DNA of 64,000 nucleotides from Coleofasciculus chthonoplastes F2-STO-03 (GTDB lineage: Bacteria; Cyanobacteriota; Cyanobacteriia; Cyanobacteriales; Coleofasciculaceae), in assembly GCA_040222015.1 (NCBI GenBank), contig JAVJWO010000178.1:32001-96000 (forward strand), in the 5' to 3' direction. A program made the translations under genes and the position numbers. The notes beneath the pieces are model-generated. The model made no database searches and was not told where the DNA came from. It saw nothing but the letters and a program-made list of their open reading frames with translations. Positions 34,934 to 59,494 of the stretch are shown here, one piece after another (position 1 is the first letter of the stretch; each line of letters starts with the position of its first letter).

Positions 34934-35350
34934 ATGCAATATCACGTTATTTACGACGGCAACTGCAATCTTTGTGTCACGTTAGTGCAGCTTCTGGAAA
35001 ATCTGGATCAAGGACAGCAGTTTGATTACATTCCCATGCAGGATGAAGCCACCTGTGAAAACTTTGGCATTACCCCCCAAGACTGCGAAATGGGGATGAT
35101 TCTCATTGATGGGGCGTCCCCGGAATGTCGGTGGCAAGGGAGTGAGGCGGCTGAGGAAATTGGGCGTCTGTTGCCTATGGGCGAGGTGTTCGTCTCAGCA
35201 TATCGGGCAATGCCTGGAATGAAATGGCTAGGCGATCGCACATATCAACAGGTTCGTGATAATCGGTATAGTTGGTTTGGCAAGCGATCGAGTACCTACA
35301 ATTCAGCTTATCCTCTGGGATGTCAGGATAACCAAAATTGCCAGACGTAA
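34934..35350 (+). CDS. DCC1-like thiol-disulfide oxidoreductase (DUF393)
   Basis: IYDGNCNLC, Y..VRDNRY.WFG. Confidence 0.9.
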   Translation: MQYHVIYDGNCNLCVTLVQLLENLDQGQQFDYIPMQDEATCENFGITPQDCEMGMILIDGASPECRWQGSEAAEEIGRLLPMGEVFVSAYRAMPGMKWLGDRTYQQVRDNRYSWFGKRSSTYNSAYPLGCQDNQNCQT

Positions 35351-35429
35351 TTGGAATGTGGCTGATATAATCTCGGTTCGTAGTAGGCACGAAGCGTGCC
35401 AGAAGTGAAGACAGCGCTTACTACAAGCG

Positions 35430-35628
35430 GCTAAATCCAGATAACCGTTATCACCAGTAGTATGCACTTTCCAGCCTGTTTTACTCGGATACGTCCAGCC
35501 AGAATAATGTTTGATTGACTTGTATTTAGGACGCTTGGCTAACCCTTTAAACCACCGATTAAATGCGTAATCAACGCGCTTTAAGGTAGCTTGTAAAGTG
35601 ATGCAGTTACACTCTTTGTCTTTGTATA
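35430..35628 (-). pseudogene. tnpB: TnpB internal fragment
   Basis: LQATLKRVDYAFNRWFKGLAKRPKYKSIKHYSGWTYPSKTGWKV closely matches the N-terminal part of the TnpB at 43271. Confidence 0.85.
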
Positions 35629-35629
35629 A

Positions 35630-36022
35630 GGTTCTCATTCTGTATTCTCTGTTCAACTGCATATAGTGTTCGTGACTAAATACAGGCGCAAGATTATTAC
35701 ATCGGGAATGTTAGAGCGATTACATGAGGTGCTTGCAAATGTCTGTATTAAGACAAAGTGCCGCCTTGTCGAGTTTTCAGGAGAAGCTGATCACGTTCAT
35801 TTACTGGTAGACTTTCATCCAGACAACAACCTATCATCTTTGATTGGTAGCATGAAGTCTGCCTCTAGTTGAATTATCAGAAAAGACTTTGCCGTGGAAC
35901 TGTCAAAAACTTATACTAAGTCGGCATTTTGGTCAGGCTCTTATTATGTTGCTTCTACTGGTGGCGCTCCCATTGAGAGAGTTAAGGCTTATATTAAATC
36001 CCAAGAAACACCTCAAGATTAA
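35630..36022 (+). pseudogene. tnpA: IS200/IS605 Y1 HUH transposase, start lost and internal TGA
   Basis: GSHSVFSVQLHIVFVTKYRRK, EADHVHLLV (HUH), SASS*IIRK (stop 35870-35872), FWSGSYYVASTGGA, VKAYIKSQ. Confidence 0.92.
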
Positions 36023-36220
36023 CCCTGAGCCAAGTCGAAGGGTTGATTGCCTCCGTTCCTCCGGCAATCCGCTATCCCTCCCCACCCTCCTGAGCCTGCG
36101 AAGGATCTGCTGAGGGTGGGGACTCCCGCGAACACGTTGAAGCTAAGAGGCAACTTATACCCTATAAGTAGCGTCTATTGTTTGAGTACCTGAACTGTAG
36201 CTATTTTAATTTTATGTACC

Positions 36221-54195: not shown

Positions 54196-57100
54196 GTGGA
54201 ACTTTGGACAGCGCTAGGCGTTTCTATCCTCAACGACTTACTTTTAAAAGACATCCTCCTGAAACTGGGGAAAGAAGCATTAGAAGACTATGTAAAAGAT
54301 TTTTTCAAAGACTGCATTAAAACCGGGGTACAATCTGCCCAACCCGATATCCTGAAAAAAGCCCTCGGTGAGGCTTTACAGCAATTTCTCAAACTCATCG
54401 AATATGAATTACTCTTCTATGTAACCGAAGCCGAAGTTCGAGACAACTATCAAATAGTAATTGAACGGTTTATCAAAGACGATGACGTTAAACCCCTGTT
54501 AGGAAAAGCCTTTGAAAAAGATTGTCGCGCCATCGACGCCAATCAATTAAGTACAATTTGGGTGCAGCGCTATTCACCTGATATGCCAACTGGGTTTAAC
54601 TGGGAGGAGATTACCAAACCCTATCTCAAAGAAGTTAAAAGCATTGTCCGCAATTCGCCAGAGTTAAAAGAACTGTTAAAATTAGAGATTCTGGAATCCA
54701 TTGAACAACAGGTTCGAGACAATGCCAAAATTAATCCTGATTTTAATATCACTAAATATCAAGAAGGCTTACGGGAACGCTACAGCAACTTAAACCTATC
54801 CAGTTTAGATACAACAGGCTGCGCCTATAACCAACTGAAACTCTGGCGACTCTTCATCCCGCAAAATGTGCGACAAGTTCATCAGGGATTACCCCAAGTC
54901 TATGAACTCCCCAAAGAACATCAACGGCGACTGCGAGAGAGTCATCTACTTGACGCGGATGTGTCTCTGGAAGAGTTAACCGAATATAAACAGGTTTATT
55001 CTCAACAGCCAATCCGCCCCATCAATGAAATTATTAACGATAAAGATAACTATCCCTATCTGGTGATTCTCGGTGATCCGGGTTCTGGCAAGTCTACCTT
55101 GTTGCAATATTTGGCATTAGATTGGGCAAATTCTACACCGAATGATGCCAATTTTCATCCGATTCCCCTGCTGATTGAATTACGCACCTATATGCGAAAT
55201 CGCGACGCGGGACAATGTAAGAATTTCCTGGAATTTTTCCATGATAGCAGTGGAATTGTCTGTCATCTGAATCAGCATCAACTGGTGGAACAGTTACAAG
55301 CCGGAAATGCTTTAGTCATGTTTGATGGCTTGGATGAGGTATTTGATCCGGGAAAACGGGAGGATGTGATTACCGATATTCATTGCTTCACTAATGACTA
55401 TCCTGATGTGCGGGTAATTGTCACCTCTCGCGTGATTGGCTATAAACCGCAGCGGTTACGAGATGCCCAATTTTATCATTTTATGCTGCAAGATTTAGAG
55501 GCAGATCAGATTCAGGAGTTTATTACCCGTTGGCATGATTTAACCTTTACCGATAAAGTAGATAAACAGAGGAAGTGGGAACGACTCCAACGGGCAATTG
55601 ATACCTCAAAAGCGATTCGCGAACTGGCTGGAAATCCGCTGCTATTGACAATGATGGCAATATTAAATCGCAATCAGGAATTACCCAGAGATAGACCCGA
55701 ATTATACAACCAAGCGTCGCGGGTATTGCTGCATCAATGGGATGTGGAACGGGCGTTAGTCGAACATCAGCAGTTAGAGATTCAAACGATTGATTATAAA
55801 GATAAGCAGGCGATGTTGCGTCAGGTGGCTTATCAGATGCAAGCAGCAGAGAAAGGTTTAGCGGGTAATCTGATTGCGGCGGATGAGTTAGAAAGAATTT
55901 TGACGGATTATCTGAAAACGCTAGATATCACTAATTCCAGGGCGGTGGCTAGGGTGATGATTAAGCAACTGCGGGAACGGAATTTTATCTTATGTTTCAT
56001 GGGGGCAGATTATTATGCCTTTGTGCATCGGACATTTTTGGAGTATTTTTGTGCTTGGGAATATGTTTGGCAGTTTGAGAAGGAACGAACAATTTCTCTG
56101 GAGGGGTTGAAAAGCGAGGTTTTTGGCAAGCATTGGCAGGATGAGTCTTGGCATGAAGTGTTACGGCTGATTGTGGGGATGATTGAGCCAAAGCTGGCTG
56201 GGGAGATTATAGATTATTTGATGAATCAGTCGGGGGAAGCGGAAAAGTTTATTAATGTGTTTCTAGCGGCGGATTGCCTGTCTGAGGCGAGGAATCGTTC
56301 GGTTATCATATCGACAGCGAATCAATTACTGAACCAGATTAAGGGGTTAATTCAGTATGACTTACCTTACCATTATGAATTTTATGAAGAGGAAGCAACG
56401 TTAGTTCGGGAAATTCGCACTCAAGCGGTTGCGGCAATTGCGACAACCTGGCATGATTCTCCAGACACCTTACCTTGGCTGAAACAAAAAGCTCAATTTG
56501 ATAACGATTCTGCTGTGCGACAAGCAGCGATGCAAGAATTAGCCAGAGGATGGAAAGATGACCCCGACACCTTACCTATCCTCAAACAAAAAGCCCAATC
56601 TGATGACCATCCGGCTGTGCGAAGTGCAGCGGTGGAAGAAATAGCCAAAGGCTGGAAAGATGACCCAGATACCTTACCTTGGCTGAAACAAAAAGCCCAA
56701 TCTGATGACAATAGGTTTGTGCGACGTGCAGCGGTACAAGAATTAGCCAAAGGCTGGAAAGATGACCCAGACACCTTACCTTGGTTGAAACAAAAAGCTC
56801 AATTTGATGACGATGAGGATGTGCGATATGCAGCGGTGGAAGAAATAGCCAAAGGCTGGAAAGATGACCCAGATACCTTACCTATACTCAAACAAAAAGC
56901 CCAATCTGATGACAATTGGGCTGTGCGAAGTGCAGCGGTGGAAGAATTAGCCAAAGGCTGGAAAGATGACCCAGATACCTTACCTTGGCTGAAACAAAAA
57001 GCCCAATCTGATGACCATTGGGATGTGCGACGTGCAGCGGTGCAAGAATTAGCCAAAGGCTGGAAGGATGAGCCATGGCTATTTGAATTATTACGCGATC

Positions 57101-57300
57101 GCGCTCTCAATGATCCCTTTGTGCGCGAGGAAGACTGGCAAGACAATCCTCGGCAATTAGCTATTGAAATCATTATCAAACAATATCCTGATCATCCCCA
57201 GACTCTACCCTTACTGCGCGACAGAGACGAAAATGATCCTGATGAAAAAGTTAGAGAGTTTGCCCAGAAAAAATTGGCACAATTAAAGTTAAGTCTGTAG
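54196..57300 (+). CDS. NACHT NTPase (NLR-like) with C-terminal HEAT/PBS-lyase-like repeats
   Basis: Walker A GDPGSGKST, Walker B FDGLDE, IVTSR, GNPLLL, FVHRTFLEYF; six 34-aa repeats. Confidence 0.93.
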   Translation: MELWTALGVSILNDLLLKDILLKLGKEALEDYVKDFFKDCIKTGVQSAQPDILKKALGEALQQFLKLIEYELLFYVTEAEVRDNYQIVIERFIKDDDVKPLLGKAFEKDCRAIDANQLSTIWVQRYSPDMPTGFNWEEITKPYLKEVKSIVRNSPELKELLKLEILESIEQQVRDNAKINPDFNITKYQEGLRERYSNLNLSSLDTTGCAYNQLKLWRLFIPQNVRQVHQGLPQVYELPKEHQRRLRESHLLDADVSLEELTEYKQVYSQQPIRPINEIINDKDNYPYLVILGDPGSGKSTLLQYLALDWANSTPNDANFHPIPLLIELRTYMRNRDAGQCKNFLEFFHDSSGIVCHLNQHQLVEQLQAGNALVMFDGLDEVFDPGKREDVITDIHCFTNDYPDVRVIVTSRVIGYKPQRLRDAQFYHFMLQDLEADQIQEFITRWHDLTFTDKVDKQRKWERLQRAIDTSKAIRELAGNPLLLTMMAILNRNQELPRDRPELYNQASRVLLHQWDVERALVEHQQLEIQTIDYKDKQAMLRQVAYQMQAAEKGLAGNLIAADELERILTDYLKTLDITNSRAVARVMIKQLRERNFILCFMGADYYAFVHRTFLEYFCAWEYVWQFEKERTISLEGLKSEVFGKHWQDESWHEVLRLIVGMIEPKLAGEIIDYLMNQSGEAEKFINVFLAADCLSEARNRSVIISTANQLLNQIKGLIQYDLPYHYEFYEEEATLVREIRTQAVAAIATTWHDSPDTLPWLKQKAQFDNDSAVRQAAMQELARGWKDDPDTLPILKQKAQSDDHPAVRSAAVEEIAKGWKDDPDTLPWLKQKAQSDDNRFVRRAAVQELAKGWKDDPDTLPWLKQKAQFDDDEDVRYAAVEEIAKGWKDDPDTLPILKQKAQSDDNWAVRSAAVEELAKGWKDDPDTLPWLKQKAQSDDHWDVRRAAVQELAKGWKDEPWLFELLRDRALNDPFVREEDWQDNPRQLAIEIIIKQYPDHPQTLPLLRDRDENDPDEKVREFAQKKLAQLKLSL
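56455..57066 (+). repeat. Six near-identical 102-bp intragenic repeats
   Basis: Each encodes D[D/S]PDTLP[W/I]LKQKAQ[S/F]D[D/N]xxxVRxAA[V/M][Q/E]E[L/I]A[K/R]GWK. Confidence 0.95.
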
Positions 57301-57641
57301 GGGCGGGTTTCACGACTATGTTTTGGGTTGCAAAGGTGCGTTAGCGAAGCGTAACGCACCCTACACCCGCCCCGACTCAGGTGTCTAGACTTCCTGTTAA
57401 AAGAAAGGGCGATCCGATAAAATTAAATTGACACAGTTGTCAATTTGTGCAAGCGGGTCGCCCCTACCGGGAATTAAAAGGGCGATCGCTCTCGAAACGT
57501 GTTAAGAAAGATGGGTAATGATAGCGATCGGGAAAAAATCCCAGATAAAAATAATTAGAGACGCTATAGTAGGGTCACGGCACTGCCGTGACCTTATCGG
57601 TAGAACTACCGTATCCTGATGGAAATCTAATTATAATTTCT

Positions 57642-57882
57642 AAATAAACAGGTTAATTGCCTTCAACAACCCCACGCTACTGACGTGGAGCATGGGGATT
57701 GCAAGACAAATTGCATTTTAAACCGTTGAATACCGCGTAGAGTCTCAGTTTGGTACAGACATCCGGATACTTCCCTAGTCCGGATTACCTCTAAAACCTT
57801 TTGTCGGGTTGTTGTTAAGTCAAGACATCTTAACTGAGATGGCGGGAAGGGACTACACACTCTTACTCGGAGGTTTATCACC
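57642..57882 (+). ncRNA. omegaRNA (HEARO-like) with 5' guide
   Basis: About 220-nt structured leader (CCGGATACTTCCCTAGTCCGG, GGCGGGAAGGGAC) directly upstream of a PLMP/RRXRR ORF; guide would be the flank about 57642-57661. Confidence 0.75.
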
Positions 57883-59104
57883 ATGTTGCGAGTACCAGTT
57901 TTATCGAAATCAGGTAAGCCATTAATGCCCACAAAACCTAGCCGTGCTAGACGTTGGCTTAAAGAAGGTAAAGCTAAAGTATTGTATAACTACTTAGAAT
58001 GTTTTGCTATTCAGCTAACATTTGAAACGGAAGAAAATACTCAGTCTGTAGCCGTGGGGATAGACCCTGGCAAGCGATATTCCGGGATTGGGGTTCAATC
58101 AAGTTTAGTTACCCTTTGGATGGGACACTTAGTTCTACCGTTCAAAACAGTCAAGGAACGGATGGAATTACGGCGAGTGATGCGTCGAGCAAGGCGGGGT
58201 AGACGAATTAACCGGAAGTTACCTTATTCTGAACGTTGCCATCGTCAAGCTCGGTTTGATAATCGCAAACAAGGTAAACTGCCGCCGTCAATTCGAGCTA
58301 ATAAACAGCTTGAGTTACGGGTAGTCAAAGAGTTGTTCAAGCTATTCCCAATTAGTGCCATCCATTATGAATTAGTTATGGCGGATGTAGACAAGACGTG
58401 CGGACGTAAATCGGCTCGGTCTGGCGTTGGCTTTTCTCCAGTCATGGTAGGTCAGAGACAAATGCTAACTTGGTTATCTGAGTTAGCCCCTATTATCACC
58501 CATAAAGGATGGCACAGGGATGGTAACGGAACCAGTCAACTTAGGCAATGGTTAGGATTAGCCAAAGACAAAAAGAACAAGGCTAATCAGACGCCTGCAA
58601 CTCATGCCGTTGACGGTGTAACCTTAGCCGCGTTCGAGTTCATCCAATGGCGTGAATGGCATTCCGATCATGCTAAACATGGTAGCTGGGTAGGTAATGT
58701 TCAAGTTACCCCCGCGCCGTTTGCGGTAATCCGTAGACCACCCGTTAGTCGTAGACAATTGCATCTATGTATTCCCTCTAAAGGTGGACTACGGCGTAAG
58801 TATGGCGGCACAGTCACCCGTCATGGGTTTAGAAAAGGTGACAAAGTTATAGCCGAAAAAGCTGGAAAAACTTACATCGGTTGGTGTTCTGGAGACACCG
58901 ATAAACTGGTTTCGGTTAGTGATATTAACTGGAAACGTTTAGGACAATTTAGTGTCAAAAAAGTCCAGTTGTTGCAGCGAAGCACGGGGTTAATTGTCGT
59001 GCCTGCAACTGGACCCTTCAAACCTCACCGCATCGAGCGGCGCGGTTTGACCTCTATCCCTCTCCACCCTGCTTCGCTGAGGGTGGAGTCTCACGAGAAA
59101 TACG
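57662..59104 (+). mobile_element. IS200/IS605-superfamily element carrying isrB
   Basis: Begins TTCAACAACCCCA..TGGGG hairpin; ends CTATCCCTCTCCACCCT..AGGGTGGAGTCTCACGAGAAATACG followed by ATGA. Confidence 0.8.
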
Positions 59105-59181
59105 ATGAAGATCAGCACCCTATTGACTCCGGCACTCACCTCAACCCTGTTCGCTTCCCTAGGGTTAGGAGTGGTTGTTAG
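57883..59181 (+). CDS. isrB: IsrB (HNH-less IscB relative; RNA-guided nickase family)
   Basis: GKPLMPT (PLMP), VGIDPG (RuvC-I), Arg-rich bridge helix RRVMRRARRGRR, HYELV (RuvC-II), THAVDG (RuvC-III); no HNH or CxxC segment; GGAGG RBS. Confidence 0.85.
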   Translation: MLRVPVLSKSGKPLMPTKPSRARRWLKEGKAKVLYNYLECFAIQLTFETEENTQSVAVGIDPGKRYSGIGVQSSLVTLWMGHLVLPFKTVKERMELRRVMRRARRGRRINRKLPYSERCHRQARFDNRKQGKLPPSIRANKQLELRVVKELFKLFPISAIHYELVMADVDKTCGRKSARSGVGFSPVMVGQRQMLTWLSELAPIITHKGWHRDGNGTSQLRQWLGLAKDKKNKANQTPATHAVDGVTLAAFEFIQWREWHSDHAKHGSWVGNVQVTPAPFAVIRRPPVSRRQLHLCIPSKGGLRRKYGGTVTRHGFRKGDKVIAEKAGKTYIGWCSGDTDKLVSVSDINWKRLGQFSVKKVQLLQRSTGLIVVPATGPFKPHRIERRGLTSIPLHPASLRVESHEKYDEDQHPIDSGTHLNPVRFPRVRSGC

Positions 59182-59494
59182 CATATCAGCCATTATCCCT
59201 GAATCCGCGATCGCACAAACCACTGAACGGGTGAATCCCCTAGAAGATCTCGATAGTCGCCAAAATGAGCGAGATTCACTCACGGGAACCCCGGGTAACG
59301 GTGGCTGGAATGTCTTTGATTTTATCCATCGCTCCCGTTTAGGAGTTGATTCGGAAGCATTTAACAGCGAACTCGATCAAAAGCTAGACAATGCGACAGA
59401 GGAGTTCCGGCGGCTACAACGGGAACGGTTAAGAAATCAACAGCAAGTTCAACCGAATTCCCCCTCTACTCCGGCTGGGGGAGGCATTAGATAA
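59105..59494 (+). CDS. Hypothetical secreted protein
   Basis: Signal peptide ending AIAQ; FDFIHR..LG and FRRLQRERL motifs; overlapped by the isrB tail. Confidence 0.75.
   Translation: MKISTLLTPALTSTLFASLGLGVVVSISAIIPESAIAQTTERVNPLEDLDSRQNERDSLTGTPGNGGWNVFDFIHRSRLGVDSEAFNSELDQKLDNATEEFRRLQRERLRNQQQVQPNSPSTPAGGGIR

Follow-up and report, generated by a model that had tools for sequence, protein, structure and literature searches.

IsrB has been described in most detail as DtIsrB of Desulfovirgula thermocuniculi, in complex with its omegaRNA (PDB 8DMB). DtIsrB has a PLMP motif and a split RuvC domain without an HNH domain, is encoded behind a 5' omegaRNA leader of ~300 nt, and recognizes an NTGA target-adjacent motif (TAM) that its Q326R substitution opens to ATGG (Hirano 2022, PMC9581776). 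We found no treatment of genomic insertion context in the available text of that paper. The transposons that carry such genes were surveyed by Kapitonov (2016, PMC4810608), who reported N|ATGA targets and CG ends in cyanobacterial ISC1 and IS605B elements, and ATGA targeting as a property of TnpA that is common to TnpB elements; the words 'start codon' do not occur in the main text. In TnpA, the DNA guide covaries with the target and TAM, and TnpB and IscB act in restorative homing, in which the empty site is cut and repaired from the occupied allele (Meers 2023, 10.1101/2023.03.14.532601). A laboratory gene drive, in which the double-strand cutter TnpB spreads within a plasmid pool, has also been reported (10.1101/2025.02.20.638934), and the terms IscB, IsrB and 'species' have no occurrences in the available text of that preprint. 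According to the accessible part of a 2026 review (PMC13565253), copying into orthologous sites is theoretical apart from the TnpB plasmid experiment. The literature that we found treats IsrB in vitro only: our search returned no in vivo test of its role and, in main texts, neither homing of IsrB between species nor the parking of elements at start codons, although Weinberg 2009 and Altae-Tran 2021 may mention start codons. The family described here gives natural evidence on the use of the nick and on the transcription of a guide that lies outside the element.

An IsrB element with exact ends at a host ATG

We analysed a window of 64,000 nucleotides from the genome that we call G000. It contains an isrB transposon with exact ends and an exact target, which has empty alleles in related genomes and an intact IsrB core. 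Its boundaries and immediate surroundings are:

57642..57661, + strand: host 5' leader and predicted 20-nt guide, with the protospacer beside ATGA in the empty allele (from the empty alleles)
57662..59104, + strand: non-autonomous IS200/IS605 (ISC1) element of 1443 bp with termini TT...CG, no target duplication and no tnpA (from empty alleles, sibling ends, and the termini and target in Kapitonov 2016)
59062..59088, + strand: predicted binding site of TnpA, a subterminal hairpin near the end that faces the ATG (from the sequence; position kept in siblings)
59089..59104, + strand: 16-nt tail that replaces the host leader before the ATG (a weak GAG anti-SD match in the window copy)
59090..59093, + strand: CTCA, predicted DNA guide for target choice by TnpA (covariation with the target; mechanism from Meers 2023)
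59105..59108, + strand: ATGA, which is the target of transposition, the host start codon and the predicted TAM of IsrB (empty alleles and family junctions)
59105..59494, + strand: intact host gene; its product, a hypothetical protein of 129 aa conserved in cyanobacteria, has matches in 35 of 41 related genomes

An earlier interpretation made from the letters of this DNA alone (the sequence-only reading) predicted that removing the element would rejoin the leader to the host gene. The host gene is present in five of the eight genomes of the same genus that we searched (G001, G007, G002, G008 and G005), and in three of these (G001, G007 and G002) the leader sits immediately before the host ATG, in exactly the predicted way. 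In G008 it likewise sits on the ATG, with a few substitutions in the leader, and G005 has the same insertion as G000 at the same site. The joint also occurs in sequencing runs: contigs that pass from 57661 to 59105, skipping exactly 1443 bases, occurred in one of four DNA runs and then in all four further runs. The empty joint was not seen in run X1, which holds the occupied allele; contigs drop rare variants. Comparison with the empty alleles reveals no target-site duplication at 57662-59104. The 5' end of the element is TTCAAC, and at the 3' end the hairpin is followed by the tail, which abuts the ATGA. The identification of the predicted guide with the host leader is supported in that 57642-57661 adjoins ATGA in the empty alleles, and no other site in G000 combines its 14-nt seed (at most one mismatch) with NTG.

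This element belongs to a known family, and its target and TAM have already been published. It shares with ISC1-1_MA and IS605B-1_MA of Microcystis the same HNH-less IscB1, the subterminal hairpins, the lack of a target duplication, the N|ATGA target and the CG-3' end, and its TT-5' end is as in IS605B-1_MA, whereas the ISC1 families reported from Coleofasciculus in the same paper (PMC4810608) have TT|GG and TT|GA targets. It also has the hallmarks of ISC1 elements, namely a fixed 4-base insertion motif without duplication (seen in the empty alleles, and as ATGA or ATGG in 78 of 81 family junctions) and subterminal hairpins accompanied by a DNA guide whose sequence follows that of the target. 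As possible sources of TnpA in trans, G000 has 17 matches to PF01797; of the six loci inspected, two have related ends but a TTGA motif.

Other traces of such elements were seen. Near positions 12835-12866 of contig C57 in G000 there is a remnant of ~31 bp, in which the first 11 bases of the element are fused to its last 20 and followed by ATGA. At 35303-36190 of the window is a decayed IS605-type element, comprising a tnpA (35639-36004) with one internal TGA and a divergent tnpB-like fragment; the hairpin at its end has TTGA after it and is similar to the ends of another IsrB subfamily. Members of that subfamily (52-58% identical) are on contigs C170, C162, C179 and C103 of G000, with TTGA after the end in the first three, and locus L182 has an apparently intact tnpA with ends of this type.

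The coding and RNA features of the element are:

57632..57637, + strand: TATAAT hexamer, 24 nt before the element (read from the sequence)
57662..57882, + strand: HEARO-like omegaRNA scaffold, including the 5'-end hairpin (match to Rfam RF02033; covariation in 20 family members)
57883..59181, + strand: isrB ORF of 432 aa, with a folded core that ends near aa 370 and a frameshifted tail that overlaps the host ORF by 77 nt
58936..58947, + strand: R352 and Q355, corresponding to the TAM-reading residues R323 and Q326 of DtIsrB (alignment, motif index and Hirano 2022)

The protein is a predicted RNA-guided nickase. The sequence-only description of it, as having PLMP, three RuvC motifs and a bridge helix but no HNH, was borne out by profile matches and by alignment to 8DMB. 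PLMP is at aa 13-16 (PF14239, E = 4e-51), and the catalytic residues of RuvC-I (D61), RuvC-II (E163) and RuvC-III (H241/D244) and the arginine-rich bridge helix are colinear with 8DMB. Residues 2-370 align with DtIsrB (E = 2.6e-47) in a way that leaves no space for an HNH domain, the ~78 aa from RuvC-II to RuvC-III align to the DtIsrB linker, and Pfam has no HNH match in the ORF. IscB structures match only its N-terminal part, and the IscB model NF040563 scores 124.8 bits against a cut-off of 175, over aa 6-172 only. R352 and Q355 align with an Arg and a Gln that are three residues apart in DtIsrB, and we equate these two with R323 and Q326 of Hirano 2022. Unlike DtIsrB, the protein has a frameshifted C-terminal tail: the ORF has 432 aa, compared to the ~350 aa typical of IsrB, and homology stops at aa 370. 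A one-base shift near 59014-59018 bypasses a stop codon that most siblings keep 56-58 nt before the junction, and the frame therefore runs on to 59181, giving the 77-nt overlap with the host ORF, which the sequence-only reading did not include. The shift has not prevented mobility, since an element at a second site (L046) has it too.

The leader that precedes isrB is 221 nt long, shorter than that of DtIsrB. It had been called HEARO-like, and the first hairpins and the core stem align with HEARO RNA (RF02033), and two-sided changes were found in 28 of the 38 predicted pairs among 20 family leaders, as expected for a structured 5' omegaRNA. The match itself (34.4 bits, E = 2e-4) is below the Rfam gathering score of 83, and the ORF here lacks an HNH domain. 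In the leaders of L039, L089, L090, L028, L174 and other loci, CTCGTGAG occurs just before the isrB start, and in several siblings it is the reverse complement of CTCACGAG in the far-end tail.

Target motif, DNA guide and IsrB residue across the family

We collected element ends from G000, from a genome scan (23 loci, with titles that name Coleofasciculus), from 52 family genomes (80 regions) and from a metagenome scan (22 loci), and obtained 81 junctions after de-duplication by downstream flank. L164 was dropped because its flank was too short. The motif at the right end is ATGA in 65 junctions, ATGG in 13, ATGT in one and something else in two; the three with neither ATGA nor ATGG (L058, L028 and L063) are outside the set of 78 used below.

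The four bases beside the hairpin are CTCA or TTCA where the target is ATGA, and CCCA or TCCA where it is ATGG. At the position equivalent to residue 355, which is readable in 62 junctions and unreadable in 19 of the 81, IsrB has Q with ATGA in 51 cases, R with ATGG in 10, and Q with a damaged junction in one. The guide at the end, the target motif and the IsrB residue thus covary, in a way that fits the effect of Q326R in DtIsrB, and the covariation of residue and target probably reflects one evolutionary event. In silico, then, an NTG-type 3' TAM would be read by Arg and Gln (R352 and Q355) at ATGA, and by Arg in place of Gln at ATGG. The proposal that the TAM is ATGA, including the host ATG, is supported by the predominance of ATGA among the junctions and by its covariation with Q355. 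An ATGG subfamily with matching changes of guide and residue is seen here, unlike in the ISC1 set as presented in Kapitonov 2016. In these Q/ATGA and R/ATGG subfamilies the target of the transposase and the TAM of the nuclease changed together, which makes them a test of co-evolution, and the R/ATGG subfamily is a natural candidate for an ATGG-TAM nickase.

Host genes and transcription at the insertion sites

The sequence-only reading had suggested tabulating the flanks of other copies for ATGA and for a start-codon bias, and both were found. We scored a junction as a start site if the ORF that it opens is 60 aa or longer and scores positively in a home-made coding model. By this rule 23 of the 65 ATGA junctions and 3 of the 13 ATGG junctions (26 of 78) open a host ORF, compared to 12.9% of the ATGA sites of G000, or 14.0% if only non-disruptive sites are counted (P ~ 1e-5). 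Our home-made gene caller predicts 5,662 genes in this genome. The products include FolD, MurE, MurQ, PdxH, FtsH, GatB, GcvP, Rubisco activase and trehalose phosphatase, and in most of them the family models match from near the first residues. The sole copies of gatB (in G066), murE and folD (G008), sepF (G001) and pdxH (G005 and G002) start at the ATG of an element; the sepF gene has no profile match, and its identity is presumed. These genes are normally essential. For folD only 4 of 20 bases of the left flank match the empty site, for murE and gatB the left junction was not recovered, and both sides match only for sepF, pdxH and ftsH. The assemblies are consensus sequences, in which empty alleles of the essential genes, persisting in polyploid cells, could be hidden. 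Whether intact isrB genes are commoner at start sites was judged by eye, with no clear difference: intact and broken genes occur at both kinds of site.

For the host gene in the window, orthologues in other genera begin at an equivalent methionine, so the ATG at 59105 is the real start. The protein has no Pfam or NCBIfam match and its Atlas clusters are unnamed; it is widespread in the order and, by eye, has a hydrophobic, signal-peptide-like N-terminus. Between an ABC permease gene and the host gene, the window has an NNH2-NACHT-HEAT repeat gene (54196-57300), which G008 and other genera lack at this place; in them the permease gene is immediately followed by the host gene. Short intergenic repeats that are present in many copies, recognizable by loose ends and raised depth of the contigs, follow at 57300-57470.

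The idea that the insertion disables the host gene by separating it from its ribosome-binding site found no support, since the same layout is found on sole copies of normally essential genes and the tail of the element pairs with the anti-SD about as well as the native leader does (-3.0 versus -3.2 kcal/mol for the native AGG leader, which is itself weak). These energies were computed for positions -14 to -4 with a generic anti-SD 9-mer; the 16S 3' end was not found in G000. Most G000 genes pair more weakly still (37% reach -3 kcal/mol), so translation here does not depend on a strong SD. The AGG motif is absent from the leaders of orthologues in other genera, and by prediction the occupied allele is no less open around the ATG than the empty one. 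Because the tail resembles the native leader in anti-SD pairing, no strong SD is needed and no terminator-like site is present, we consider it likely, from these calculations, that the host gene is still expressed from the occupied allele. The main doubt for the window copy is the 77-nt overlap of isrB with the host start, which may hinder initiation.

GAGG is found 6-7 nt before the ATG in 30 of 79 tails (the window copy has only GAG), without enrichment at start copies (13 of 27, versus 17 of 52 others; P = 0.22). Translational coupling through an isrB stop that overlaps the ATGA could apply only to L079, a non-start copy, among the readable frames, most of which stop 56-58 nt upstream. Counts of synonymous and non-synonymous changes in the host gene were broken by an indel in three of four comparisons, and the fourth (14 versus 10 codons) mostly predates the insertion.

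The guide is outside the element, and host transcription is therefore needed to make it. The sequence-only proposal that a host promoter transcribes the guide, the omegaRNA and isrB is supported indirectly by the orientation of the copies. Among non-start copies, the next gene downstream has the same direction in 40 of 51, compared to a background of 327 of 588 (56%; P = 6e-4). The upstream gene has the same direction in 13 of 16, the only non-start junctions that gave an upstream gene call, compared to 234 of 467 (50%; P = 0.011). When 15 non-start copies were mapped onto G000, 12 were in the sense orientation between tandem genes (background 29%). This bias could also stem from a preference for one replication strand or from selection against antisense insertions. 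Within the element, the terminator scan found no terminator-like site on the + strand, and a search for an internal promoter gave two promoter-like sites, versus 2.7 expected by shuffling. The TATAAT before the element was not flagged by the promoter scan; as a speculation, a -10 box there would start transcripts near 57643-57645 and give a guide of 18-19 nt. The hexamer is present in the empty allele of G002 and absent from G001, G007 and G008. Four public runs labelled as RNA gave flat, DNA-like cover of contigs and are not used here as evidence on expression.

Near-identical copies at shared sites in different species

The insertion shared by G000 and G005 lies in a tract that stands out from the rest of the two genomes:

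57576..59218, + strand: near-identical G000/G005 tract and candidate conversion tract (4 differences in 1643 bp), comprising the element with 86 bp on its left and 114 bp on its right

The element differs at 3 of 1443 bases between G000 and G005, whose median divergence is 5.6% (533 overlapping 1.5-kb windows over 277 kb). Only four of those windows are less than 1% diverged, two on the element and two on one WD40 gene. The left and right flanks of the tract have 0 and 1 differences in G005, as against 4-26 and 8-9 in G001, G007 and G002. Four other pairs of copies share a site, with divergence of 0-0.6% in the element versus 3.6-5.1% in the right flank: G005/G002 (3/1015 versus 71/1399 differences), G007/G001 (5/918 versus 66/1399), G007/G002 (6/1000 versus 52/1399) and a metagenome contig/G001 (0/754 versus 50/1399). 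Elements at different sites are a median of 79% alike. Where readable, the near-identity ends ~30-115 bp from the ends of the element. Two same-site pairs include a copy with a later internal deletion, of 434 or 636 bp, a pattern that looks like invasion followed by decay. In the pair L076/L094 the agreement is confined to the 3' 1 kb. L084 and L148, which also share a site, have 4 differences in only 50 comparable bases, too few to be informative.

Vertical descent cannot explain this near-identity, so the occupied allele moved between species. Near-identical copies at the same site in divergent hosts, with short co-converted flanks, are the pattern expected of homing elements; it occurs in four genome pairs and one metagenome pair, and it suggests spread between species by homing. 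The short flanking tracts favour conversion initiated by a break. That the RNP would be aimed at the empty allele, as the sequence-only reading held, accords with the biochemistry of the family and with the covariation of guide, target and residue. Compared to TnpB and IscB homing as so far described, in which double-strand cutters act in laboratory tests within a cell or plasmid pool, the system here would involve a nickase, is chromosomal and has a footprint between species. Together with the covariation and the orientation bias of non-start copies, this footprint appears to be what is new here.

In the explanation that we favour, and think somewhat better than evenly supported, an IsrB transposon placed before a host ATGA persists through host read-through and nick-driven copying into empty alleles, likely across species. 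TnpA supplied in trans would probably have placed the element scar-free before the ATGA, choosing it through base pairing to CTCA, the guide next to the end hairpin; IsrB would read the same motif as its TAM through Q355, both steps following family knowledge and the covariation. Read-through from the host would make the guide, the omegaRNA and IsrB while delivering a translatable host gene, with the 16-nt tail standing in for the host leader. Only copies that face with host transcription would make the RNP, because the guide is outside the element, and copies in leaders and at start codons would survive because they break no ORF and have no terminator to stop read-through. A nick in an incoming or sister empty allele would then lead to short-tract gene conversion. 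More tentatively, and with rather less confidence, IsrB elements could generally be nick-driven homing elements of gene starts, which borrow a promoter, give back a substitute leader and invade the same site in neighbouring species. If so, conserved translation starts would be both a safe harbour and a homing target.

The same data might arise neutrally, if TnpA targets ATGA, purifying selection eliminates the copies that lie within ORFs or point against transcription, ordinary recombination or transformation shares the sites, and IsrB merely restores excised copies or does nothing. ATGA targeting is indeed common to TnpB elements (Kapitonov 2016), isrB is intact or broken at start and non-start sites alike, and the tails show no SD enrichment at starts. 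A background tract of near-identity also exists in the WD40 gene: being at least 1.5 kb long and less than 1% diverged, and unrelated to the element, it implies that ordinary recombination crosses these species. By a rough estimate such recombination alone could give ~2 shared sites among 9 genomes, versus the 4 observed. Against neutrality stands the ~2.5-fold enrichment of start sites over non-disruptive sites, and a limit of near-identity at ~30-115 bp is short for random transformation tracts; we regard this account as unlikely, though worth serious consideration.

The sequence-only reading instead saw a possible expression switch, in which insertion would silence the host gene by separating it from its ribosome-binding site, TnpA would restore expression by excising the element, and IsrB would return the gene to its silent state. 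In favour of this, the element displaces the native leader, isrB reads on past the start of a host gene that may be dispensable, and an open tnpA frame with related ends is present in G000. The switch is nevertheless very unlikely, because normally essential genes with a single copy have the same layout, the native AGG pairs weakly and is not kept in other genera, the element contains no terminator-like site, the insertion is kept in two species, and run X1 lacks the empty joint. It is less probable still that chimeric contigs or misbinning of co-occurring species mimic the sharing of sites. Most of the genomes are drafts of 60-1440 contigs and several left flanks mismatch the empty site, but the G000 and G005 copies differ at three element positions and paired copies differ by internal deletions. 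Run X1, which is independent of the assemblies, moreover contains a third allele, in which a host gene of the G005 type follows the element, with uniform depth across the right junction. Homing through nicks at the empty site remains our preferred reading.

Three observations concern individual copies. The near-identical WD40 tract covers ~1.7 kb of a WD40-repeat gene in G005 (L189:1001-2750), ~0.5% diverged from G000, and represents recent recombination between species that is unrelated to IsrB. At five loci (L104 and L131; L047, L048 and L084) the left and right flanks come from differing empty sites, by recombination between copies or misassembly. Lastly, G002 has three nearly identical copies of the ATGG type at different sites (L133, L134 and L135), and G001, a second species, has a copy elsewhere (L123) that is 99% identical to them, indicating recent transposition and transfer.
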